Shown: piece after piece, positions 34,537-59,358 of the stretch
Layout of the letters: each line of letters starts with the position of its first letter
How positions within the stretch are numbered: the stretch's first letter is position 1
Assembly (NCBI GenBank): GCA_018830645.1
Contig: JAHJSA010000010.1
Span: forward strand, 2,394-66,393
Origin: Actinomycetota bacterium
GTDB taxonomy: Bacteria > Actinomycetota > Thermoleophilia > RBG-16-64-13
Reading direction: 5' to 3'
DNA: 64,000 bases
Translations under genes and position numbers: made by a program
Notes under the pieces: generated by a model
Databases searched by the model: none
The model's input: the letters and a program-made list of their open reading frames with translations, nothing else
What the model was told of the DNA's origin: nothing

Positions 34537-37500
34537 GTGGTACTCGAAGACCTCAAGCCCAACGCGTCGATCCGCGGCATCGTGCCCGACGCCCTCGTGA
34601 CGGTCGTCAGTGTGCAGTGGTTCGGCTCGGAGGCTTTGGAGCTCACCTACAAGACTGCCACCGGCAAGGTCGCCAACGAGCTCCTCTATCGCCACGATGA
34701 ACCTCGGCTCGAAGTCGTTGAGCTCGGACGCCCCTGGAGCTTCGACGGTGACGGCGCCCTCTTCCGACTGGTGTCCGAGGCGCAGCGGATCCACCTCGCC
34801 CACCTGTTCGACCCCGTGCTCGCCGTGCACACGTCGTTGGTCGATCCTCTGCCCCACCAGATCACCGCGGTCTACGGGGCCATGCTGCCGCGCCAGCCGC
34901 TGCGCTTCCTACTCGCCGATGACCCCGGTGCCGGCAAGACCATCATGGCGGGTCTCCTCATGAAGGAACTCATAGCCCGTGGTGACCTCCAGCGTTGCCT
35001 CGTGGTCTGCCCCGGGAGCCTCGCCGAGCAGTGGCAGGACGAGCTATATCGCCGCTTCCAGCTGCCCTTCGAGATCCTCACCAACGACAAGCTCGAGGCC
35101 GCCCGCACGGGGAACTGGTTCCTCGAAACCAACCTGGTCATAGCCCGACTCGACAAGCTTTCACGGAACGAAGACGTGCAGCAGAAGCTGCAGGCACCCG
35201 ACTGCCGCTGGGACCTGGTGGTCTGCGACGAGGCCCACAAGATGTCGGCCACCGTCTTCAGCGGAGAGATCAAGTACACGAAACGTTACCGGCTGGGGCA
35301 GCTCCTCTCCACCCTCACCCGGCACTTCTTGCTCATGACGGCCACGCCCCACAACGGCAAGGAGGAGGACTTCCAGCTCTTCATGGCTCTGCTCGACGGC
35401 GACCGCTTCGAGGGCCGCTTCCGCGATGGGGTGCACGTGGCCGAGGTCTCCGATCTCATGCGACGCATGGTCAAGGAGGGGCTGCTCAAGTTCGACGGAA
35501 CCCCCCTCTTCCCCGAGCGGATCGCCTACACCGTGCCCTACCGACTCTCGGATGCAGAAGCGCACCTCTACAAGGCCGTCACCGAGTACGTGCGGGAGGA
35601 GTTCAACCGCGCCGAAGCCTTGGTGAACGACAAGCGGGCCGGCACGGTCGGGTTCGCGCTCACCATCCTGCAGCACCGCCTGGCCTCATCTCCCGAGGCC
35701 ATCCACCAGTCGCTTCGCCGGCGACGCGAGCGTCTCGAGAGTCGTCTGCGCGAGATGGAGGTACTCCAGCGTGGCGGGCACGTCGCGCTGGCATTCGCCC
35801 CGACAGCTCCTACCCTCGATGATGAGGACGTAGAGGACCTCGAAGAGGCGCCGGATGGCGAGGCCGAGTTGGTGGAGGAGGAGATCCTTGACCAAGCGAC
35901 CGCCGCCCGCTCGATCGTCGAGCTCAAAGCGGAGATCGAGACGTTGAAGGGCCTTGAGTCCTTGGCGCTTCACGTACGCAAGAGTGGCACGGACACCAAG
36001 TGGTGTGAGCTGGCGAGTCTGCTCGGCGAGATCTTCGCCACCGCGACCGACCCCGCCACCGAAGAGCCGACCAGCCCTGACGTTACCCACGTTGCACCCC
36101 GTCCCGCACCCTCACCGAGTCAGAAGCTCGTCATCTTCACCGAGCACCGGGACACGCTGAGCTACCTCGAGGGGCGCATCACCACGCTCCTTGGCCGCGC
36201 CGAGGCCGTGGTCATGATCCACGGAGGCATGGGGCGGGAGAAGCGCCTGGAGGCACAAGAATCCTTCAAGCATGACCCCGACGTACAGGTGCTCCTTGCC
36301 ACTGACGCCGCGGGGGAGGGCATCAACCTCCAGCGTGCTCATCTCATGGTGAACTACGACCTGCCCTGGAACCCCAACCGGATCGAACAGCGGTTCGGGC
36401 GCATCCACCGCATCGGCCAGACGGAGGTGTGTCACCTGTGGAACCTGGTGGCCGAGGAGACCCGCGAGGGCGACGTCTACCGCAGGCTCCTGGAGAAGCT
36501 CGAGCAGGCCCGCAAGGCTCTGGGCGGTCAGGTGTTCGATGTGCTCGGCAAGCTCCAGTTCGCGGGGCGACCACTCCGGGACTTGCTGATAGAGGCCATC
36601 CGCTATGGCGAGCGGGAGGATGTGCGGCTGCGTCTCACCCAAGCCGTCGAACACGCTTTCGAGCAGAGCGAGCTGCAGGATCTGCTCGAAGACCACGCCC
36701 TGGCCCACGACACCATGGACGTCAGCCGCGTCCACCGCATCCGTGAAGACATGGAGCGGGCCGAGGCCCGGCGCCTTCAGCCGCACTACATCGAGTCCTT
36801 CTTCCACGAAGCCTTCGGGCGTCTGGGCGGGACCACCAAACAGCGGGAGCCGCGCCGCTACGAGATCACCCACGTGCCGGCCCCGGTGCGCAACCGTGAT
36901 CGTCTTATCGGCATCGGCGAGCCGGTGCTCCCGCGCTACGAGCGCATCGCGTTTGAGAAGCCGCTGGTCGCTCCCCCGGGCGAGCCTTTGGCCGCCTTCA
37001 TCTGCCCCGGCCATCCGCTCCTCGACGCCGTCATCGACCTCACCCTGGAGCGCCACCGCGATCTCTTGAAGCGCGGCGCCGTGCTGGTGGACGAGCGCGA
37101 TTCCGGCATGCAGCCGCGCGTGCTCTTCTCCCTTGAGCACGCGATCCAGGACGCGAGCCTAACCCGGCAGGGAGATCGGCGAGTCGTCTCCAAGAAGATG
37201 TTGTTCGTAGAGCTCGGAGCCGACGGCACCATGCGGCACGTGCAGTACGCACCCTACCTCGATTATCGACCCTTGAACGAAGGCGAGCCCGGGGTGGACG
37301 CCATCCTCGCCCGCCCCGAGTGCACCTGGATCGACCGTGAGCTCGAGCAGCTGGCCCAGGGCTACGCCGTGGCGCACGTCGTGCCTGAGCACCTGGCCGA
37401 GGTGCGCGGCGCCAAACTCGCCCTGATCGCGAAGACCGAGGCGGCGGTGAAGGAGCGGCTCACCAAGGAGATCAGCTACTGGGATCACCGTGCTGAGCAG

Positions 37501-49123: not shown

Positions 49124-52006
49124 GTGAAGAAGAAACTCATCGAAGTCGCCCTCCCGCTGGTGGCCATCAACAAGGCCTCCGCCCGGGAGAAGTCCATCCG
49201 CCACGGCCACCCGAGCACCCTACACCTCTGGTGGGCGCGGCGACCCTTGGCGGCGGCGCGGGCGGTCATCTTCGCGCAGATGGTCGACGATCCCTCGGCG
49301 CATCCCGACCTCTTCCCCACCGAGAAGGCCCAGGAGAAGGAGCGGCAGCGCCTCTTCCACATCATCGAGGACCTCGTCCTCTGGGAGAACACCACCAACG
49401 AGACCGTGTTGCAGCAGGCGCGCGACGAGATATGGCAGAGCTGGCGCTACACCTGCGCTGAGAACGCCGACCACCCCCGGGCCAAGGAGCTCTTCGACCG
49501 CTACAAGCTGCCCGCCTTTCACGATCCCTTTGCCGGTGGCGGAGCGCTGCCCCTGGAGGCACAGCGGCTGGGACTCGAGGCCTACGCCAGCGATCTGAAT
49601 CCGGTGGCGGTCCTGATCAACAAGGCGATGATCGAGATCCCGCCCAAGTTCGCGGGGCGCCCGCCGGTGAACCCCGAAGCACGGCGGGAGCAATCGCTGA
49701 TCGCCAAGCCCTGGCGGGGCGCGCAGGGGCTGGCCGAGGACGTGCGCTACTACGGGCGGTGGATGCGCGACGAGGCCGAGAAGCGCATCGGCCACCTCTA
49801 CCCCAAGATCGAGATCACGACGGAGATGGCCAAGGAGCGGCCGGACCTCAAGCCCCTCGTGGGGCGCAGGCTGACCGTCATCGCCTGGCTCTGGGCGCGC
49901 ACGGTGAAGAGCCCCAACCCGGCCTTCGCGCAGGTGGATGTGCCGCTGATCTCCACGTTCATGCTCTCCACCAAGGCGGGCAAGGAGGCCTACGTCGAGC
50001 CGGTGATCGAGGATGGCGGCTACCGCTTCACGGTGAAGAGGGGGAAGCCGAGGGATGCCGAGACGGCGAAGATGGGCACGAAGTTGGCACGGGGAGCGAA
50101 CTTCCGATGCGTGATGTCAGGTACGCCGATTGCGGGTGATTACATCAAGGCCGAGGGCAAGGCCGGGCGTATGGGCGCGCGGCTGATGGCCATCGTCGCC
50201 GAGGGCGAACGCGGACGGGTCTATCTCGCGCCGACTTCCGAGCATGAGGCGGCTGCGCGCAAGGCGAAGCCCGAGTGGAAGCCGGATGTTGAGTTCTTTC
50301 AGCAGGCGCTCGGCTTCCGCGTCGGCAACTATGGCATGACGAGGTGGAGCGATCTCTTCACCCCCCGCCAGCTCGTGGCACTCACAACGTTCTCCGACCT
50401 GGCGCAGGAAGCGCGCGAGCGAGTGAGGCACGATGCGCAAGCCGCGGCTACGCGCGATGGTGGCAAGTCTTTGCCCGACGTTGGCGCCGCCGCGTCGGCG
50501 TACGCTGATGCAGTGAGCATGTACCTGTCCATCGCCCTCAGCCGGTTGGCGGACATGTGCAACGCACTCTGCGGATGGGAGATCTCCAAGACACAAGTGC
50601 GGCATTTGTTCACACGTCAGGCCGTTCCGATGCTGTGGGATTTCGCGGAGAACAATGTGCTCGGCGAGGCAGCGGGCGCCTACCTAGTGAGTCTCTCGAA
50701 CATGGCCAAGGCGATAGATCAGCTGCCAGCATCTAGGCCGGGAATGGTGAAACAGGCCGACGCCCAGGGTCAGGCCATCAGCCAGGATAAGCTCGTTTCC
50801 ACCGACCCGCCGTACTACGACAATGTTGGCTACGCCGACCTATCGGACTTCTTCTACGTCTGGTTGCGCCGGTCGCTGAAGCCGGTCTTTCCTGACCTCT
50901 TCGCGACACTTGCTGTGCCCAAAGGCGACGAACTCGTGGCTACGCCGGGCCGTCACGGCGGCAAGGAAAGGGCCGAGACCTTCTTTCTGGAAGGAATGAC
51001 GCAGGCGATGCAGCGGCTCGCCGAGCGGGCGCACCCGGCCTTCCCGGTCACCATCTACTACGCCTTCAAGCAGTCCGAGAGCGATGGCGATGAAGGTACG
51101 ACGAATACAGGGTGGGACACCTTCTTGGCCGCAGTCATCGAGGCTGGTTTCGCCACCACCGGGACCTGGCCGATGCGAACGGAGTTGGCCAACCGCATCC
51201 GCGGCATGGACTCCAACGCCCTTGCCTCCAGCATCGTCCTCGTCTGTCGCCCGCGCCCGGCCAATGCACCGACCGCCACACGTCGCGAGTTTACGGCTGC
51301 ACTCAAGGCGGAGCTTCCCGTAGCCCTCGCGCACCTGCAGCGGGGCAATATTGCCCCGGTGGACCTACAGCAGGCGGCCATCGGCCCGGGCATGGCGGTC
51401 TACACCCGCTACGCAAAGGTGCTCGACGCCGAGGGCAAGGCCCTCACCGTGCGCGAGGCGCTGGCGCTGATCAACCAGACCCTCGATGAGGCGCTGGCCG
51501 AGCAGGAGGGCGACTTCGACGCCGACAGCCGGTGGGCGCTCGCCTGGTTCGAACAGTCCGGCTTCGCAGAGGGCGAGTATGGGGTGGCCGAGACGCTCTC
51601 CAAGGCCAAGAACACCAGTGTGGCCGGGATGGTTGACGCGGGCATCCTGGCATCGAGCCGCGGCAAAGTGCGGCTGCTCCGCCCCGATGAGCTGCCCGCC
51701 GACTGGGACCCGACCACCGACCCTCGCCTGACGGCGTGGGAGATGGTGCACCATCTCATCCGGGCGCTCGAATCTGGGGGAGAGAGCCCCGCGGCCGCGC
51801 TGGTTGGCAAGCTCGGCACGAAGGCCGAAATTGCCCGCGAACTCTGCTATCGGCTCTACACCCTCTGCGAGCGCAAGAAGCGGGCTGCGGAGGCCTTGTC
51901 ATACAATGGGCTCGTGCAGAGCTGGCCGGAGATCGCGCGGTTGGCACGGGACGGGGGTGCGGCTGTGATGGAGCAGGGCGCGTTGTTCGACAGGGCCGAG
52001 GAGTAG
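49124..52006 (+). CDS. DUF1156-domain N6-adenine DNA methyltransferase (DISARM DrmMI-like / type IIG-like methyltransferase)
   Basis: N-terminus [48 protein letters not shown] (typical DUF1156 start); the catalytic [22 protein letters not shown] motif (D/N-PP-Y of N6-adenine MTases); 960 aa. Confidence 0.8.
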
Positions 52007-52009
52007 GTC

Positions 52010-52190
52010 GTGCAGATTGAACGCCTTGAAATCAAGAACTACCGATTCTTCCGCGACGCGAAGCTTGAGGCTTTGCCCCGCATGGCGGTGGTAGCCGGAG
52101 CAAACGCTCGGGCAAGTCCACGCTGTTTGACGACACCCATGTGCTCCACAGGGGTGGACGGGGTGTCAGCAGTCCGCTTGACGGCTGGTA
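52010..52190 (+). pseudogene. decayed 5' fragment of an SMC/AAA-type ATPase gene (frameshift in the Walker A motif, then truncated)
   Basis: VQIERLEIKNYRFFRDAKLEALPRMAVVAGANA then a -1 shift to GKSTLFDDTHVLHRGG...DGW*. The intact sense would be ...VVAGxNxSGKSTLFD. The N-terminus resembles those of the 38201 and 39995 ATPases. Confidence 0.5.
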
Positions 52191-52349
52191 GGCTGCACAT
52201 GCAGTCTGTCGAATCCCAAGATGACACGCGGTACGGAACGGGTTCTCCTGCCGCCGCGGCGCTCGTTGGCCGATTTCGCCGTGGACGTGCTCGGTGCTAT
52301 GCAGACGCCCCGGGGCCGTGGCCTTTGAGATATGCAAACTGGGTAATGC

Positions 52350-52886: not shown

Positions 52887-53956
52887 TGGCTGAGGCGCCC
52901 AACAAGCGTTTCAACTTGACTCGCCCGCACGTGTTCCGTACTGGAAGCGCTTGGCTCGTAAGTTAAGCGCAATCACGTTAGACGGACCTGTGTGAGGTCT
53001 TATGCCCGGGAAGGCGTCGCGAGTGGAAGTCCGATTTGAGTCGACTGCTGATGGTGGACGGCCAAACCCGGTCAACCTCGGTTCCGAATACCGGAAGGTC
53101 GCGGCCGCCGGTCTGCGCGCCGGTCACGACGCCTTCTTGGAGTACTTTGGCATCTGCCTGACCCAGGGTGCGTTGGCGCTCGCTCCTAGTGAGACGGCCA
53201 CGGCTGTGCTGACTCGCCTTGTGTATGAGCCAGGGTCGGAGATGCTGCTTGAAGCAGGCAGTTTTGCTCCATTCGAGGGGTGTAGAGTTGTCGCGCACGG
53301 GGTTGTGCTGGGTCTGGCGGACGGAGCCGTCCAACAAGCACATCGAGCAGTTGCCACTGGTGCGGCACAGCTCAGGTGCTCGACGTTAGATATAGCCTTG
53401 GAGGGAGGTGGTTGTGGGAACCTTCGAAATGCTGAGCAAAGATACGGAATGCTGTGCTGCTCTGGGCCGCATGACTCTCGCAGCCGCACGGTTGGAGTCC
53501 GATCTGCGCGTCTTCTTGACCCTGAACGGCGTGCAGGTTGGCGCAGCCGCAACTTTCGGCGGCCTCGTCAAGAAGCTCGGCGACAATGGCCTTCTCTCGG
53601 ACAGCGGTCTCGGAATCCTGCGCGGGCTCAAGCGCCAGCGCAACTACCTGACCCACAACCTCTACGGCCTGTTCGCCGCCCGTATCGACGAGGATCTCAT
53701 GACGCGCTGGAACTCGCGGATGTGAGTCTGCTTGCGGAGCGTGCCTGGGTGCTTGAGGACAATCTAAATGGCTTCGCCCAGATTGCGGAAGAGCGCATTG
53801 CCGAGTTGCAGAGTGGCGATCGAGCAGTCGGCGAGCTGCTCTTCAGGCCGTAATCACGTGGTGGGCAGACCTAACAAGCGGATCAACCCGCCTCGCTTCG
53901 CTCGCGGGCTATCCGCATAGGCGTTATGTCGACCAGATTCGGAGGCGTGAGCATTC

Positions 53957-55288
53957 GTGAGCATGTTCGATGGGCTCGAGCACGTCCGTGTCATCGGCGA
54001 GGGGGCCTTCTCGATTGTACGAGAGTACCGCACCAGGAGCTCTGGTGGAGCACTGGCGGTCAAACAGCTCAAGGACAGCCACGCGGGGAACGGGGACTAC
54101 ATCGAGCGGTTCAGGCGTGAAGTGGAGTTGCTGAGGGCCCTGGCTGGCACGCCTCACATCGTGGAGTTGATCGATCAGGAAGTGGACGGGCCAGTGTTTC
54201 GCTATGCGATGCCATGCGCGAGGATGAACTTGGCTGACTTGCTGCGAGCACGAAACAACCAGCTGGAGTTCTCCGATCGGTTGGCGCTCTTTGAGCAGGT
54301 CTTGGCTGGTATGAAAGCAGCCCACGCCAAACAAATCCTCCATCGTGACCTCGCCCCGAGCAACGTTCTGGTTTTTGGTGCCGGAGACAGCCTGCAGCTT
54401 GCCATAGCGGATTTCGGGCTGGGCAAGAGCCTTGCCGACATCGAGTCCGGAACACGTTCGAGCGTTTCCTCGCTCGGGCAACTCTATTTTGTGGCGCCCG
54501 AGCAGAGGCAGAGACTCAATAGCTCATCAGTAAGAAGCGACGTCTACTCGGTTGGGAAGATGCTGAACTACATCCTGACGGGTAAGGAGCCCGATGTAGT
54601 TCACCCCTGCAAATTCGGCGCGGTCTGTCGGAAGGCCTGCGCGCAGGATCCAGAAGACCGCTATGGGGATTTGAGCGAGTTTGAGGAGGAATATCTGCTG
54701 TGCAAAGACCTACAGTTGCGCCCGCTAACGCCTTCTGATCAGTGGACTATCCGGGAGAGACTGGCGAGTGATGAGCAGTTTGGGTGGCAGGAGTTCCTGC
54801 GGATGGCTATCGAAGGGAAGACGGACGATCACATCTACTATGATGTGATTGAGCCGACTATTACGTATCTACAGAAGGACGACAACCTTCAGCAGTTCGT
54901 TGCGGCTCTGGGTCCTTCGGAGAGCGATTTCGTCGAAGCTCTGCAGAAGCACCTGCATGAGTGCTATGGAACCTCTAGGTGGCCATTCTCCTCAATGAAC
55001 TGGTTCGGGGATTTTCTACTTTCCCTGTTCCACAACCTGCAAAAGCACAGCGCACGGTTGACGTGTCTGGAAGAGCTTTGGTTGCTGGCGTACACGATCG
55101 ACCAGTGGGGAGTGCAGCGGGATCTGTATGGTCTCATCAACGATGGCAAGATACCGGAGGACCTGGCTATTGACTTCGCGATGGCAATAGCCAAGAGCGA
55201 GATCAGCACACAGAAGCCGCAGTTCAGCAGGCGAAGCATTCATCCCGCCATACAGAACGCGATCGACTCACTCGCTTGGAGATCTTGA
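53957..55288 (+). CDS. Ser/Thr protein kinase (Hanks-type catalytic domain + uncharacterised C-terminal helical domain)
   Basis: VIGEGAFSIVREY (Gly-loop), ALAVKQL (VAIK), ILHRDLAPSNVLV (HRDLKPxN), IADFGLGKS (DFG), YFVAPEQ (APE). Confidence 0.8.
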   Translation: MSMFDGLEHVRVIGEGAFSIVREYRTRSSGGALAVKQLKDSHAGNGDYIERFRREVELLRALAGTPHIVELIDQEVDGPVFRYAMPCARMNLADLLRARNNQLEFSDRLALFEQVLAGMKAAHAKQILHRDLAPSNVLVFGAGDSLQLAIADFGLGKSLADIESGTRSSVSSLGQLYFVAPEQRQRLNSSSVRSDVYSVGKMLNYILTGKEPDVVHPCKFGAVCRKACAQDPEDRYGDLSEFEEEYLLCKDLQLRPLTPSDQWTIRERLASDEQFGWQEFLRMAIEGKTDDHIYYDVIEPTITYLQKDDNLQQFVAALGPSESDFVEALQKHLHECYGTSRWPFSSMNWFGDFLLSLFHNLQKHSARLTCLEELWLLAYTIDQWGVQRDLYGLINDGKIPEDLAIDFAMAIAKSEISTQKPQFSRRSIHPAIQNAIDSLAWRS

Positions 55289-55524
55289 AGAGATATACTG
55301 TCGTAGAACTCAAGCCTGCCTTGGCCGACTACCTGCCCGAGCTCCGCACGTGTAACTCTTGGACTCAGTCTCAAGTAGCCCGTCGGATTGGCTCGAGCCA
55401 GTCCCGGGTCGCGAAGCTGGAGGCAGCCGACGCGTCTGTTTCGCTCGATCTCCTGGTCAAGTCCCTGTTGGCTTTGGGGGCGTCGCGCGGCGAGGTCGGT
55501 CGCGTGATCAACCGGGCGGCATAA
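55276..55524 (+). CDS. XRE-family HTH DNA-binding protein (HigA/antitoxin-like)
   Basis: ELRTCNSWTQSQVARRIGSSQSRVAKLEAADASVSLDLLVKSLLALG is a classic HTH_3 pattern; overlaps the kinase 3' end by 13 nt. Confidence 0.6.
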   Translation: MEILKRYTVVELKPALADYLPELRTCNSWTQSQVARRIGSSQSRVAKLEAADASVSLDLLVKSLLALGASRGEVGRVINRAA

Positions 55525-55531
55525 CAACGGG

Positions 55532-56347
55532 ATGCACCAGGCTGCCGCTGCGCGGCTGCAGGTGATGCCGTCGACGTTAGCCAGACCCTCGGGGGGTGGC
55601 GTGCCCGGGCTTAGCAAGAAGGACAACTACTACGTGGTTAACCGGTACATCGGCGTGACCGGTGGGTATCTCGGCGACTTCTCGTACCGGACCCACGCCG
55701 AGTTCTATGGTGAGTACTGCGATCTTGACATCGACCCGTTCGTCTATGACGGGACCACTCGGGAGCGCTTCATCAAGGTGCTTGAGGATGCTGACCCCAG
55801 AACGCAGGCGGCGATTCTGTCGGGGGTCCTCGAGAAGTACGCTGAGGGGTCAGAAGCGCTGCGAACTCCCGAATCGCGCCGGCACGTGGAGGAGCTGATA
55901 GCGAAGTGTCTTGGCGACGCGGACGTCGGCACTCCGAAGCTCCGTATCAGCAGTGATGTCGTCAGACGCGCGATCGCCGACGCGCACACTCTCATGGAGA
56001 GCAGCGGTCCGACGAGCGCCGTAGACAGGGTCCACACCGCCCTCCACGGCTACCTCAAGGCAGCCTGTGACGAGGCAGGAATACCGCATCCGTCGGATGC
56101 AAGCATCCTCGGCCTCTTCAAGCTACTCAAGGAGAAGCATCCGCGTCTGCAGACGTTTGGACCCCATCAAGATGCGGTAGTTCAGGTTCTCCGGTCGCTC
56201 GGCGCGGTTATGGATGCCCTCAATCCTGCTCGCAATCGTGGCAGTATCGCGCATCCTAACGACGAGCTTCTCGACAGCCACGAGGCGGTGCTCTTTGTCA
56301 ACGCGGCGCGAACCGTCCTGCAGTATCTTGATGCCAAGCTTGAGTAA
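55532..56347 (+). CDS. AbiJ-like abortive-infection protein with C-terminal Abi_C (HEPN-type) domain
   Basis: The C-terminal NPARNRGSIAHPNDELLDSHEAVLFVNAARTVLQYLDAKL matches the Abi_C R-x4-6-H pattern of HEPN domains; the N-terminal region resembles AbiJ N-terminal domains. Confidence 0.55.
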   Translation: MHQAAAARLQVMPSTLARPSGGGVPGLSKKDNYYVVNRYIGVTGGYLGDFSYRTHAEFYGEYCDLDIDPFVYDGTTRERFIKVLEDADPRTQAAILSGVLEKYAEGSEALRTPESRRHVEELIAKCLGDADVGTPKLRISSDVVRRAIADAHTLMESSGPTSAVDRVHTALHGYLKAACDEAGIPHPSDASILGLFKLLKEKHPRLQTFGPHQDAVVQVLRSLGAVMDALNPARNRGSIAHPNDELLDSHEAVLFVNAARTVLQYLDAKLE

Positions 56348-56449
56348 CGATGCGGCAGCTGGCTATCAAGCCGCTCCAGACCGGCGCCGCCGCGCGGCGC
56401 GGCTGAGCGGCAATGGCGCTAGGCAGCACAATCAACACCGGAGGAGCAC

Positions 56450-57553
56450 GTGAAGACTCTCCCAACCGTAGTTGCGAGCGCGCGGCACAACATCGCCGTC
56501 GCCCTCGACCAGTTCGACGGGGTTGAGCGAGCGACGAATCGGGACGCCTTCGACTTCCTCTTTGAATCTCGGCCCACTCCAACGAGCGACCAGGGCCTTC
56601 TCGTCGTTCGATTCAGCGGCACGGTCATGGGAACTCGACCGGCCGACTTCGGACTTCCGCAGTACGATGATCGCGAGACGATGTTTCGGGTGTTCTCTGA
56701 AGCTGCGATTGGCGATGCGCTGGACGAGAAGAGCGAGGTTCCAATCGCGCTACCCGACCAGCCGGTCCACACAATTGACTGCTTTTCGCCCCACTTTCAG
56801 ATGTGGCACGACCGCCAGCCGGCGACTGACGAGGAGATCGAGCGCTACGTCATCGCGCATGTTTTTTGGGCGTGGCAGTTCAACTTTCCCAATTGGCGCG
56901 TGGGCCCATCCGACGTGCTGCGCTTGAAGCGTCCGTGGCCTGACATCCTCCGGATGATTGCGCTTCATGAGGGCCATGAGTGGGCGGTATCCAATCCCGA
57001 TGCTTCGGGCGTGACCGTCACACCATCAACCACCCTCATCCGTGATCAACGCCAGCAAGGCAGACCTGAAGCGAGGCCAGCTGTGGAGCGACTGGGGCCA
57101 GAACCCACACCCGTCCCAGCGCCAAGTCCGGCGGTGTTCGTGTACGTTGACGAATCTCGCATCGCCGACAACCTACGAGGGATCGAGGCACCCAACTTCG
57201 ATCTGCGCAAGCTGGTCGCACTTTGCGAGGAGTTGAATCAGTGCTATCGCGCTCAGTGCTACCATGCTGTAGCGGCGCTTACGCGAGTGGTGATCGATCA
57301 CGTTCCCCCGCTGTTTGGCGTGCGCTCCTTCATCGAAGTGGCGAACAACTATCCCGGTTCTCGCTCGTTCAAGGCGAGCATGCAGCAGCTTGAGACGGCC
57401 GCTCGGGCAATCGCGGACCAGCACCTCCACACGCAGATTCGAAACAGCGAGGTGCTTCCGACCCGCGTGCAGGTCGACTTCTCTCAGGTAGTCGATGTTC
57501 TTCTTGCTGAGATCGTCCGATTACTCCAACCACGAAATGGCGATGCTGCCTAA
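56450..57553 (+). CDS. hypothetical protein (defense-island cargo, unassigned)
   Basis: 367-aa ORF with good coding character; no family recognised. Confidence 0.4.
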   Translation: MKTLPTVVASARHNIAVALDQFDGVERATNRDAFDFLFESRPTPTSDQGLLVVRFSGTVMGTRPADFGLPQYDDRETMFRVFSEAAIGDALDEKSEVPIALPDQPVHTIDCFSPHFQMWHDRQPATDEEIERYVIAHVFWAWQFNFPNWRVGPSDVLRLKRPWPDILRMIALHEGHEWAVSNPDASGVTVTPSTTLIRDQRQQGRPEARPAVERLGPEPTPVPAPSPAVFVYVDESRIADNLRGIEAPNFDLRKLVALCEELNQCYRAQCYHAVAALTRVVIDHVPPLFGVRSFIEVANNYPGSRSFKASMQQLETAARAIADQHLHTQIRNSEVLPTRVQVDFSQVVDVLLAEIVRLLQPRNGDAA

Positions 57554-57643
57554 CAAGGCGCTGCACCCCACGGCCGCGGGCGAACGGGATGAGCGGCCGC
57601 GGGTGAGCGCCGGTCGTTAGGCCGAAGCCTGAGGGGGCGACGA

Positions 57644-58498
57644 GTGAGGGATGAGCCGTATTACTCGGTTCGTACGGGCAAGCACCCGACTGGGGGCCGC
57701 CTTGATCTCGATGGCCTCAAGCGCTTGTTCACCTCTGTCTTTGAGAGGCTCTCGGACGAGGGCTACTTCCAGGAAGTAGTCGGTTTTAACTGCGTCGACG
57801 CGGGTTTTGTCCCCGGGTCAGCAGGAGCAGACACAGAGGCGTTCTTCTTCCAGCACCTCAAGAAGCGGCACTTGTGGCCGTTGCCGTCGAGGGTCGGCCA
57901 CTTCTCGGAAGATGATCTGTTCGACGTGATGGAGCTTCTCTATGACGTGGTGTCCAAGGGCGTGGACGGCTATCACCACGATTGGAACAACTGCGGCTGG
58001 CACTATGAGACGTTCGACCGCTCCGCGGGGCAGGTTGAGTATCGTGCCGCGATCAACGGGATTCTGCGGGAGTACGACTGCGGCTATGAGCTGACCGCCC
58101 GCGGTGAGATCATCGCAAAGGCACCGCTGGGTTTGGCTGATCTTGAGCGGGCGCCTGCGCCTCCGGGGGACAGCCAAGATGTCCAACAGCGCGTCGCGGC
58201 GGCCGTGGACAGATTCCGGCGCCGCGGAGCAACCCTGGAACAGAGACGTGATGCGGTGCGTGACCTTGCCGATGTTCTTGAGTTCGTACGACCCCAAGCG
58301 AAGGCGGTCATCACCAAGAGGGACGAGGGCGACATCTTCGAACTGGCGAACGGGTTCGGCATCCGTCATCACAACGACAAGCAGAAGACGGACTACGACA
58401 AGGCCGTTTGGCTGAGCTGGATGTTCTACTACTACTTGGCCACGATTCATGCCGTCACACGTCTCATCGAGCGTTCGGACCGGACGTTCTCGGCCTAA
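57644..58498 (+). CDS. hypothetical protein (unassigned)
   Basis: 284-aa ORF; no family recognised. Confidence 0.4.
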   Translation: MRDEPYYSVRTGKHPTGGRLDLDGLKRLFTSVFERLSDEGYFQEVVGFNCVDAGFVPGSAGADTEAFFFQHLKKRHLWPLPSRVGHFSEDDLFDVMELLYDVVSKGVDGYHHDWNNCGWHYETFDRSAGQVEYRAAINGILREYDCGYELTARGEIIAKAPLGLADLERAPAPPGDSQDVQQRVAAAVDRFRRRGATLEQRRDAVRDLADVLEFVRPQAKAVITKRDEGDIFELANGFGIRHHNDKQKTDYDKAVWLSWMFYYYLATIHAVTRLIERSDRTFSA

Positions 58499-58716
58499 CA
58501 AGCCACTGCAGGCCGACACCGCTGGGCATCGCGGCGGAGCGGCAAGGGCGTTAGCACGATCCTTGATAGTCGGCAGCCCGTACAGCTCAGCATCGCGCAC
58601 GTCCATACCTTCGGCTGCTATCGTCAACGGGCCGCACGCGGCGTCGCCAGGTGCCGTAAACCTGGTACTTTGGTTCCGATTTGGCTTTCGGATACTTCAT
58701 CAACTAATGTGGGGAC

Positions 58717-59358
58717 ATGCGAACCATGTTGAACCAAGGCCTCAACGATAGCCAGATGAGGGCCGCCTACCACCGGAAGCGGTTGCAGCGCCACCATTCT
58801 GATCCTGCCGCCGTCGTGGTTGATGAACTAGGACTGCAGCACGGACGGTTCAGGGCGGACATCGCCGTTGTGAATGGTCATCTTGCAGGCTACGAGATCA
58901 AGAGCGACTTCGATCGACTTGACCGATTGAGCGCCCAGGTTGATGGCTACGGTGCGGTCTTTGACCGAATAACACTGATCGCGACCAGCAAGCACCTGGA
59001 AGAGGCTGTCGCGCTGGTTCCAGAGTGGTGGGGCCTTGTGTCGACTCAACAGGGACCTCGCGGGGGGATACGCTTCGCGACCATCAGGCAGGCCCGTCGC
59101 AACCCTGATGTCAATGACTTGTGCGTGGCGCAGTTGCTGTGGCGGGAAGAGGCCAGGGAAATCCTGCTCCACCTCGGGACTGAAGAGCGGCAACTGCGCG
59201 GCAATAGGGCGGCGCTCTATGGTCTGCTCGTGAGCCGCGTGAGTTCTCGCGAGTTGCGTGAGCGCGTCAGGGAGAAGATGAAGTCCCGCTCAGACTGGAG
59301 ATGTCCCGCACGACTCTCGCCAAGTGATGATTCGTTCCCACCCAACGCCATGTCGTGA
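58717..59358 (+). CDS. sce7726-family-like protein (restriction-endonuclease-like fold, tentative)
   Basis: LGLQHGRFRADIAVVNGHLAGYEIKSDFDRLDRLSAQVDGYGAVFDRITLIATSKHL follows the D...E-x-K Mrr-like arrangement typical of this family. Confidence 0.45.
   Translation: MRTMLNQGLNDSQMRAAYHRKRLQRHHSDPAAVVVDELGLQHGRFRADIAVVNGHLAGYEIKSDFDRLDRLSAQVDGYGAVFDRITLIATSKHLEEAVALVPEWWGLVSTQQGPRGGIRFATIRQARRNPDVNDLCVAQLLWREEAREILLHLGTEERQLRGNRAALYGLLVSRVSSRELRERVREKMKSRSDWRCPARLSPSDDSFPPNAMS

Follow-up and report, generated by a model that had tools for sequence, protein, structure and literature searches.

A 64-kb stretch of an Actinomycetota metagenome-assembled genome, referred to here as the window (all positions follow its numbering), carries nine co-oriented genes on the + strand between 34.5 and 52.0 kb. 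The outer two, hmaA and hmaB, encode the helicase and the methyltransferase of an Hma defense system. The seven genes between them encode an OLD-like nuclease, the Septu proteins PtuA and PtuB and four COG2865-type effectors. It is highly probable that this is an Hma locus beside a tRNA-Sec gene that has lost hmaC, in which cassettes were stacked by recombination between loci, effectors have private sites for their winged helix-turn-helix (wHTH) domains, and orphan sites are fossils. A preliminary description made from the DNA letters had placed all nine genes at the same positions and on the same strand, and its map holds with two gene starts corrected. The genes are:

34537..38112, + strand, hmaA: SNF2 helicase with a C-terminal NOV_C/PD-(D/E)xK nuclease domain (PADLOC, Pfam, motifs)
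38201..39910, + strand, OLD-family-like nuclease cassette: ABC ATPase with a predicted Toprim-like C-terminal domain (Pfam, model, Foldseek)
39995..41374, + strand, ptuA, Septu ATPase (PADLOC PtuA, 486 bits; the true start may be the ATG at 40004)
41371..42033, + strand, ptuB, Septu HNH nuclease (PADLOC PtuB, 137 bits; TIGR02646, 84 bits at a cut-off of 52)
42277..43449, + strand, COG2865-type gene 1: Schlafen/AlbA_2 and HATPase_c_4 (Pfam)
43517..45076, + strand, COG2865-type gene 2: DUF4062 (putative TIR-like NADase domain), HATPase_c_4 and C-terminal wHTH (Pfam, AlphaFold)
45478..47154, + strand, COG2865-type gene 3: Schlafen, HATPase_c_4 and wHTH; its GTG start overlaps the stop codon of an hmaA scar
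47395..49059, + strand, COG2865-type gene 4: Schlafen, HATPase_c_4 and wHTH; 65% identical to gene 3
49124..52006, + strand, hmaB: DUF1156 N6-adenine methyltransferase (PADLOC, Pfam, motifs)

Family scans with Pfam, PADLOC and NCBIfam models upheld the domain calls of the preliminary description (SNF2 helicase with a PD-(D/E)xK-type C-terminus, DUF1156 adenine methyltransferase, OLD-like nuclease, Septu and an array of COG2865 genes) and replaced its assignment of the core to DISARM by Hma. HmaA matches PADLOC model PDLC00659 over its full length (1680 bits, residues 2-1190). Its Pfam domains are SNF2-rel_dom, Helicase_C and NOV_C (formerly DUF3883), and the motifs GKT133, DEAH231 and the nuclease motif D...E1113-V-K1115 are present. 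HmaB is a full-length match to PDLC00660 (1589 bits), with 109 bits for DUF1156 in Pfam and the motifs FAGGG136 and DPPY561. hmaB lies downstream of hmaA on the same strand, which is the order and orientation of Hma.

The core is a known and named system. Hma (helicase, methylase, ATPase) was defined by Payne et al. in 2021 and is often found with Septu type I (PMC8565338). A 2026 paper in Nucleic Acids Research introduced the new name 'type-1 DUF499-centred BREX-related' (PMC12839542). The preliminary description had considered an uncharacterised restriction-like system, but this one has been partly characterized (PMC8565338, PMC11232893, PMC12839542). HmaC is a DUF499 ATPase, inserted genes are found in 66.5% of hma loci, and in Halomonas Septu lies between hmaA and hmaB (PMC11232893). 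OLD-ABC, HNH and Schlafen-histidine-kinase-wHTH genes are auxiliary effectors in or beside such loci (PMC12839542). The Hma system and its hosting of other defense genes are thus already known. As in other Hma loci, HmaA (SNF2 and NOV_C) and HmaB (DUF1156) are full length and in the same order and orientation, and Septu and other defense genes are inserted between hmaA and hmaB, as in Halomonas. The present locus differs in that hmaC is absent and the locus is cut after hmaB, and that the insert is of exceptional length (seven genes, 11 kb) and contains hmaB5'::hmaA3' scars and orphan repeat sites, which the available parts of PMC8565338, PMC11232893 and PMC12839542 do not mention.

Cargo between hmaA and hmaB

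The locus was compared with 79 related loci (L001-L079) from many phyla, anchored on HmaB at 67-86% amino-acid identity. Their near-universal order is hmaA, variable cargo, hmaB, an optional two-gene insert and hmaC. The hmaA-hmaB interval is empty in about 10 of the 79, with genes 12-50 nt apart, and holds different cargo of up to several kb elsewhere. The same OLD-like gene as in the window is found in L003, L011, L024 and L160, PtuAB in L013 and L031, a Schlafen-type gene resembling genes 3 and 4 in L006, L009, L039, L040, L044 and L078, a DUF4062-type gene in L008, L019, L024, L025, L028, L036 and L037, and unrelated cargo in further loci. L160 is the closest relative found. It comes from another sample, has different flanking genes and carries the OLD-like gene as its only cargo. 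Its DNA is ~90% identical to the window from hmaA through the OLD-like gene and 85-88% identical over hmaB, with protein identities of 94% for HmaA and 82% for HmaB. The otherwise similar hmaB genes have no DNA-level alignment in a central region (50429-50789 in the window), which may be a swapped target-recognition region and hence confer another methylation specificity.

The empty intervals, the differing cargo and the single OLD-like gene of L160 bear out the earlier proposal that the OLD and Septu genes are later additions; a fixed presence of both at this position in all relatives is not seen in the 79 loci. An order helicase-COG2865-methyltransferase, which had been taken to be ancestral, does recur (in the six loci with a Schlafen-type gene), but its ancestry is not demonstrable. 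Protein conservation across distant phyla, with hosts that include the archaeon Methanococcoides (L056), amounts to 67-86% for HmaB, 60-88% for HmaA (near full length), more than 70% for the OLD-like protein and 69-88% for the DUF4062-type proteins. This is unusual and therefore argues for a very recent and broad horizontal spread of the locus family.

For the OLD-like protein, Pfam reports AAA_21/AAA_15 in the ATPase half and no match, Toprim_OLD included, in the C-terminal half. Its AlphaFold model has a mean predicted local distance difference test score of 76, with ~90 over residues 360-569. In Foldseek the model aligns over its whole length with the Thermus OLD nuclease 6p74 (E 2e-13, 633 columns) and also with GajA; PtuA, SMC and Rad50 match the ATPase half only. 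E366, D370 and D425 are invariant in 21 homologues. Old and GajA sequence models match only the P-loop region, so the protein is a divergent member of the OLD family, and the predicted structure supports the OLD label at the level of the fold. The protein resembles OLD and Gabija GajA in its N-terminal ABC ATPase and, as predicted from the model, in a Toprim-like C-terminal domain, the full predicted model being alignable. It differs in being a single-gene form without a GajB-like partner. Its family is a distinct one, strongly conserved (>70% identity across phyla), which spreads as part of hma loci. The adjacent ptuA and ptuB overlap by 4 nt as in Septu type I, from which no difference was detected, and a Septu cassette within an hma locus is a known association.

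All four COG2865-type genes encode HATPase_c_4, preceded by SLFN_AlbA_2 in three and by DUF4062 in one (Pfam). Gene 1 (390 amino acids) ends right after HATPase_c_4 and leaves no room for the C-terminal wHTH found in genes 3 and 4. The start of gene 2 is at 43517 and not at the upstream GTG at 43268; that of gene 4 is most likely at 47395 and not at 47350. The DUF4062 match of gene 2 scores 67 bits at a cut-off of 24.7 (Pfam). In the AlphaFold model, the N-terminal domain resembles TIR, DNPH1 and nucleoside deoxyribosyltransferase folds, the best structural match of the whole model is the COG2865-type protein 3lmm, and the C-terminal domain resembles the centromere-binding wHTH of AspA. Residues 442-507 form a confidently modeled wHTH, whose helix 3 is the recognition helix (478-490, KDTAGRDLKSLTN).

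These proteins resemble the known Schlafen-GHKL-wHTH proteins (COG2865; 3lmm, DIP2311) and the DUF4062/NIR TIR-like NADase effectors (Swarozyc and others, described in 2026 preprints) in the combination of AlbA_2/Schlafen or DUF4062 heads with HATPase_c_4, in the C-terminal wHTH of genes 2-4, and in being embedded in BREX-related and restriction-modification (R-M) loci, as reported for 1017 taxa. Unlike what was found in the literature searched, DUF4062, HATPase_c_4 and wHTH are here fused in one protein with private 11-nt arrays at the 3' end of the gene, and the wHTH and its site appear to form a swappable specificity module of at least 11 types.

Repeat sites and winged-helix domains of the effector genes

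The gene ends within the interval and the region before hmaB carry short direct repeats:

38122..38164, + strand, site A, AATCATC(C/T)GAY three times; orphan, with an orthologous copy and the same spacer in L160
39920..39962, + strand, site B, chimeric triple repeat with unit 1 AATCTTCCGAT and units 2-3 AATCATCCGAT; orphan
42031..42110, + strand, GAGCCATAG-type repeats, three direct copies from the ptuB stop codon on and one inverted copy
42126..42168, + strand, site C, triple repeat of AATCGTCAGAT with a decayed first unit; orphan
45098..45140, + strand, site D, AATCGACCGAY three times; matches the wHTH of gene 2
49021..49076, + strand, tandem array of five 11-nt units, type A(C/G)CCNAAT, that runs across the gene 4 stop codon
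49101..49111, + strand, single AATCGACCGAT unit of the GACC type, as in site D, 12 nt upstream of the hmaB start codon

Sites A to D share one architecture, in which three 11-nt direct repeats are arranged as unit-unit-10 nt-unit with start-to-start distances of 11 and 21 nt. Apart from the single unit before hmaB, their exact repeat units are found nowhere else in the 64 kb. A scan for the 11/21 architecture gave 14 matches, all on the + strand, in the hmaA-hmaB intervals of nine loci (the window and eight relatives), and one match in shuffled sequence. Every locus with a DUF4062-type gene has a triple-repeat site at the 3' end of that gene. After the DUF4062-type set had been enlarged by 80 metagenome relatives, a site was located at most 400 nt from the stop codon in 76 of the 86 genes with enough flanking sequence. 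Most of these sites begin at positions -3 to +6 relative to the stop codon, with the TAA often inside unit 1; in a long-tailed subfamily the site is within the coding tail.

The same cassette and site are also encoded between hsdM and hsdS-hsdR of a type I R-M locus (L156, 2506-9531), upstream of type III-like N6_N4 methylase/ResIII pairs and beside MobA/TrwC relaxases (L138, L131, L095). The site is therefore a part of the cassette rather than of Hma, and the DUF4062-GHKL-wHTH cassette is a mobile, self-contained module.

The recognition-helix motif and the repeat unit correspond one to one for at least 11 types, among them:

helix RDTAxRDF, unit ATCGTCAGA
helix RDTAHRDL, unit ATCATCCGA
helix KDTAHRDL, unit ATCGTCCGA
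helix YDTANRDL, unit ATCTTCCGA
helix YDTIRRDL, unit ATCTACCGA
helix YNTAYRDLQ, unit ATCCATCGA
helix (N/K)DTAGRDLK, unit ATCGACCGA

Gene 2, with the helix AKDTAGRDLK, and site D, a GACC-type site, form a pair that agrees with this series. Among 63 distinct proteins, residues 1-430 have no association with the site type (identity 0.80-0.88 within and 0.78-0.86 between types, adjusted mutual information ~0.02), whereas residues 471-505 are strongly associated with it (0.75 within versus 0.46 between types). The strongest covarying columns are 471, 478 and 482, the latter two being located in the recognition helix. This covariation suggests that the wHTH binds its own repeats head-to-tail, the repeats being putative binding sites, and that wHTH and site form a specificity module that would recombine independently of the effector body.

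OmpR/PhoB boxes, the 11-bp iterons of ParR-parC and centromere binding by AspA are examples of tandem direct-repeat operators of winged-helix proteins. The sites described here likewise combine direct repeats of 11-bp period on one helix face with a putative wHTH reader. They differ in two ways: each lies at the 3' end of the gene that encodes its presumed reader, often over the stop codon, and this reader is joined to an NADase-like or Schlafen effector, where the known proteins have a receiver or partition domain.

Repeat arrays also accompany the Schlafen-headed type. The array of gene 4 consists of ACCCAAT-type units, and Schlafen-type relatives carry other units (ACGCAAT, ATTGCAA, ATTGCAC, AACTTGCGT and ATTGCTTAT); analogous arrays with other unit sequences are found in L040, L044, L078 and L164-L166. 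No clear repeat array was seen 3' of gene 3 (45478-47154). A search of IMG/VR with gene 4 alone gave no matches, and a search with an alignment gave six loci, in which repeat arrays are visible after the stop codon and which are too few for an analysis of covariation in the Schlafen-headed type.

The window encodes no wHTH protein that would match site A, B or C. In L160, the region from the OLD-like gene to hmaB is a gene-free 367-nt array of a TTCC site, a GTCA site, a GAGCCATAG element and an ATCC/GACC hybrid site. In the window, this series is broken up by ptuAB and the COG2865-type genes. The GAGCCATAG-type element, which is present in L160 without ptuB, may be the repeat site of another reader protein. 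Unit 1 and the left flank of site B match the TTCC site of L160 and units 2-3 are of the ATCC type; the chimeric structure therefore indicates a crossover inside the site. The last site of L160 is likewise chimeric. The orphan sites are slightly decayed in their first unit and site D is perfect. Because OLD-like and Septu cassettes in other loci have no such sites (L011, L013), the most plausible origin of the orphan sites is in DUF4062-type cassettes that have since been lost. The leftover sites may also provide short stretches of homology for later exchanges. Elsewhere, up to five different triple-repeat sites stand in tandem after one DUF4062-type gene (L150 at 3881-4330, L116, L117, L111, L104), and these piles look like a layered record of earlier specificity modules.

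Alternatively, the triple repeats might not be operators at all but neutral by-products, dedicated recombination sites or elements acting at the RNA level, the match to the wHTH reflecting linkage only. Their presence at every cassette boundary in the window, the arrays of two to five different sites in L150, L116 and L160 and the two chimeras would suit this alternative, as would the distance of only ~100 nt between helix and site. It is nevertheless unlikely: the 10-nt spacers drift but the three units within a site do not diverge from each other, the 11/21-nt spacing brings every unit to the same face of the helix, the residues that covary belong to the recognition helix of a confidently modeled wHTH, and no recombinase accompanies the cassettes. 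The site-free OLD-like and Septu cassettes of other loci and the decay of unit 1 in the orphans, as opposed to the perfect, matched site D, also speak for a reader.

Three observations count against a reading of the repeats as operators of the wHTH. The conservation of ~0.99 for units and ~0.72 for spacers within a type is a biased comparison, the sites having been picked by unit similarity. With helix and site ~100 nt apart, their linkage as one DNA block contributes to the association. Finally, the only sigma70-like promoter match in 34-53 kb (CTGACA-17-TAGAAT, 10/12, at 38128-38156) is located inside site A and directed towards the OLD-like gene, but the same register averages ~7/12 across 61 distinct sites, so that a promoter-operator arrangement is a weak hypothesis.

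Loss of hmaC

The right end of the hma locus and the left edge of the defense island are defined by three features:

31144..31240, + strand, tRNA-Sec gene at the left edge of the defense island
52010..52288, + strand, remnant of an AAA ATPase gene (first ~100-125 codons), where the hma locus ends; same remnant in L160
52306..52361, + strand, ~55-nt element CGCCCCGGGGCCGTGGCCTTTGAGATATGCAGACTGGAYAATGCTTGTT at the break point of the hma locus

In the related loci, the optional insert after hmaB encodes an AAA ATPase of ~390-460 amino acids and a protein of ~165-210 amino acids and is followed by hmaC (~1110 amino acids). In the window, an open reading frame (ORF) at 52010-52465 matches solely the first 100-125 residues of this ATPase, and the similarity stops near 52288. 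The hma locus is therefore truncated ~300 nt 3' of hmaB. A search of the 64-kb window for hmaC/DUF499 by tblastn with three HmaC proteins found no hmaC (best E 0.11), and no ORF longer than 450 amino acids lies downstream of hmaB in the window. Since the DUF499 AAA+ ATPase of ~1100 amino acids that characterizes Hma downstream of hmaB is absent, the locus was classed as a derivative without hmaC rather than a complete Hma system. The split between the window and L160 came after hmaC was lost, because L160 shares both the ATPase remnant and the ~55-nt element after hmaB.

No stop codons have arisen after that split in hmaA, the OLD-like gene or hmaB, and the ratios of nonsynonymous to synonymous substitution rates (dN/dS) between the window and L160 are 0.074, 0.094 and 0.228, respectively. 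With low dN/dS and intact genes, the hmaC-less pair is argued to be still under selection. Its retention agrees with published data from Halomonas, where HmaA alone protects E. coli from phage T4 and requires its nuclease (nickase) domain (Liu et al. 2024, PMC11232893), and with the ~19% of hmaA loci that lack hmaC (PMC11232893). Judged by these substitution patterns, the two-gene remnant is probably still active.

Conversely, hmaA and hmaB might no longer constitute a system after the loss of hmaC, and the locus might be a scaffold or landing pad on which the cassettes, all of them complete genes, provide the defense. The absence of hmaC, the truncation of the downstream ATPase gene and the status of HmaC as a defining component in the PADLOC and BREX-related classifications favor a dead core. 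This is quite improbable, however, given that hmaA and hmaB are intact with all catalytic motifs kept, that purifying selection (dN/dS 0.07 and 0.23) has acted since a split that postdates the loss, that HmaA defends on its own in E. coli, and that ~19% of hmaA loci lack hmaC. Against an active pair it must also be held that HmaC is seen as a core component present in ~81% of hmaA loci (PMC11232893), so that a locus without it could be crippled. In addition, overexpression of Halomonas HmaB left the sensitivity to T4 unchanged (PMC11232893), and the restriction-modification logic of Hma is therefore unproven. Moreover, the genome could encode hmaC at a place beyond the 64-kb window.

The nature of the missing partner also bears on the DISARM assignment. 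The preliminary description had seen an incomplete class-1 DISARM core (DrmD and DrmMI) without drmA, drmB and drmC, possibly forming a new restriction-like system with the COG2865 proteins. Class-1 DISARM (DrmA, DrmB, DrmC, DrmD, DrmMI) does resemble the locus in combining a DrmD-related SNF2-family helicase with an N6-adenine methyltransferase, as Hma does too, and HmaA gives secondary DrmD matches because both are SNF2 helicases. As a DrmD, the helicase was rejected with 348.9 bits for NCBIfam DISARM_DrmD, below the cut-off of 610, and 396 bits for the best PADLOC DrmD model against 1680 for HmaA; as a DrmMI, the methyltransferase was rejected with no DrmMI model among its PADLOC matches. 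Among the Pfam and PADLOC matches of the ORFs in 31-58 kb there is no DUF1998, no DUF3883-free helicase and no PLD, the PADLOC DrmA model matches HmaA only, as a generic helicase, and, at a threshold of 200 amino acids, no large unassigned ORF in this island would fit DrmA, DrmB or DrmC. The absent partner is instead HmaC, lost by truncation. With Hma models scoring about four times higher at full-length coverage, a third partner that is always a ~1110-amino-acid DUF499 protein in the 79 relatives and never DrmA, DrmB or DrmC (nor DUF1998), and COG2865-type cassettes that are optional and also found in type I and type III-like R-M loci, membership in DISARM is refuted and the claim of a new DISARM-like system dissolves.

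A short form of the ~55-nt element is located right after tRNA-Sec (31253-31289). L160 has two copies (12054-12110 and 17774-17830), which there separate blocks of defense genes. The element may be a boundary site of islands or cassettes; no integrase was seen with it. The 37-nt repeat at 31253 and 52325 was considered as an extended attachment (att) site and rejected, as the similarity is confined to ~40-55 nt and contains no tRNA 3' end.

The left edge of the island is marked by a fall in G+C content from ~0.70 to 0.60-0.65 directly 3' of tRNA-Sec, the sole Rfam match in 30.5-58 kb. Just upstream of the tRNA gene (31001-31083) are several tandem copies of a GGGGTGGCCGGG-containing unit with a period of ~37 nt. 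The region between tRNA-Sec and hmaA (31420-34000) encodes a 386-amino-acid ORF without family match, a Gp49/HigB-like toxin fused or adjacent to a helix-turn-helix (HTH) domain (32721-33299) and a Phd/YefM-ParE pair (33407-33998). To the right, the island goes on at 53957-63192 with a Stk2-like Ser/Thr kinase (53957-55288), an Abi_C protein (55532-56347), a match to the PADLOC model 'cll' (58717-59358), a Beta_protein gene and an HTH/M78 ImmA-IrrE-like gene on the minus strand (59267-61655) and a DUF6414 gene (62338-63192). A 35-nt sequence, AACAAACGGATCAACCTGACTCGCTTCGCTCGCGG, is found three times (32601-32635, 33312-33346 and 53873-53907; 77-91% identical), each time right after a gene end.

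Junction scars and the history of the locus

Partial copies of both core genes are located between the cassettes:

43470..43497, + strand, hmaB 5' end (28 nt), right after gene 1
45153..45245, + strand, first ~31 codons of hmaB, 76% identical
45244..45482, + strand, hmaA 3' end that lacks an internal stretch; identity of 84-88% with 37650-37718 plus 37943-38113
47243..47383, + strand, first 47 codons of hmaB, 97% identical to the true start
47374..47399, + strand, last 26 nt of hmaA

The duplicated helicase 3' ends in front of COG2865 genes had been recognized in the preliminary description and are confirmed at 45244-45482 and 47374-47399; the three copies of the hmaB 5' end had not been reported. 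Both hmaA scars end in GCAGTGA, in which TGA is the hmaA stop codon and GTG the start of the next Schlafen-type gene. The same overlap is found in loci where a Schlafen-type gene directly follows hmaA. The junctions have the order hmaB5'::hmaA3', which is the product of an unequal crossover or tandem duplication of a segment that begins within hmaA and ends within hmaB. At 45314-45483, the hmaA scar shares 93.5% identity with the hmaA end of L160 and 84% with that of the window. As the scar is nearer to the L160 allele than to the resident hmaA, the module stems from a different allele and not from a duplication in place. Extra hmaB 5' fragments between hmaA and hmaB are also present in L003, L008, L015, L024, L025, L036 and L071, and the scar-forming process is therefore general.

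A mis-assembly of the hma loci of several strains in the metagenome bin could in principle account for the fragments, as repeats of 90-240 nt with 76-97% identity could mislead an assembler working on a metagenome-assembled genome. An assembly artefact is rejected: an independent ENA assembly is 99.995% identical over 28201-49910 (one mismatch in 21.7 kb) and spans both scar junctions, two Logan assemblies from other runs match 100% over 36104-45194, including the stretch 36847-45194, and similar scars are found in seven unrelated genomes, which leaves this explanation with hardly any probability. Neither the hmaB5'::hmaA3' scars nor private repeat-site/wHTH modules with orphan relics were found described in the literature searched, and both are regarded as new.

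For the reading of the window as an Hma locus that collected cassettes, the following course of events is proposed. Judging from its motifs, HmaB would most likely mark host DNA by N6-adenine methylation, and HmaA, by analogy with its Halomonas homologue (PMC11232893), would most likely translocate on and nick unmodified invading DNA. hmaC was lost by the cut ~300 nt downstream of hmaB. The hmaA-hmaB interval is a recombination hot spot with at least five independently acquired modules, presumably added by unequal or illegitimate crossovers between hma loci with different cargo, for which conserved gene ends and repeat sites could provide the short homologies. The OLD-like nuclease, Septu and the Schlafen- or NADase-headed proteins would act as independent extra layers, as proposed for auxiliary effectors (PMC12839542). 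Each wHTH-bearing effector would most likely bind its own 11-nt repeat array head-to-tail through its C-terminal wHTH. Such binding would probably control transcription across the cassette boundary or capture the effector in cis; capture might restrain a potentially toxic effector, and a transcriptional roadblock before the downstream genes is another conceivable role. Sites A, B and C would be fossils of earlier cassettes whose proteins were lost.

A more comprehensive reading, put forward tentatively and with somewhat less than even confidence, joins these elements. Each COG2865-type effector, with its Schlafen or DUF4062 NADase-like head, GHKL domain and wHTH tail, would have a private, fast-diversifying operator of three to five 11-nt repeats at its own stop codon. 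The wHTH and the site would be swappable as a module of at least 11 types that tethers or regulates the effector in cis and controls downstream R-M-like genes. The shared edges of the units (GAT|AATC) would act as crossover points, and together with the hmaA 3' and hmaB 5' ends they would make Hma loci integrase-free collectors of cassettes with a fossil record.

The retention of an hmaC-less hmaA-hmaB pair under purifying selection in two genomes supports the hint that HmaA does not need HmaC and provides a natural minimal system. The scars show a defense hot spot that gains cassettes without a dedicated recombinase, presumably by unequal recombination between alleles with different cargo. 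The wHTH/site pairs make a large family of abortive-infection-type effectors, widespread among R-M, BREX and Hma loci, directly accessible to testing. The recognition code that they predict joins, for example, RDTAHRDL to ATCC and KDTAGRDLK to GACC, and through it orphan sites could tell the history of defense islands.

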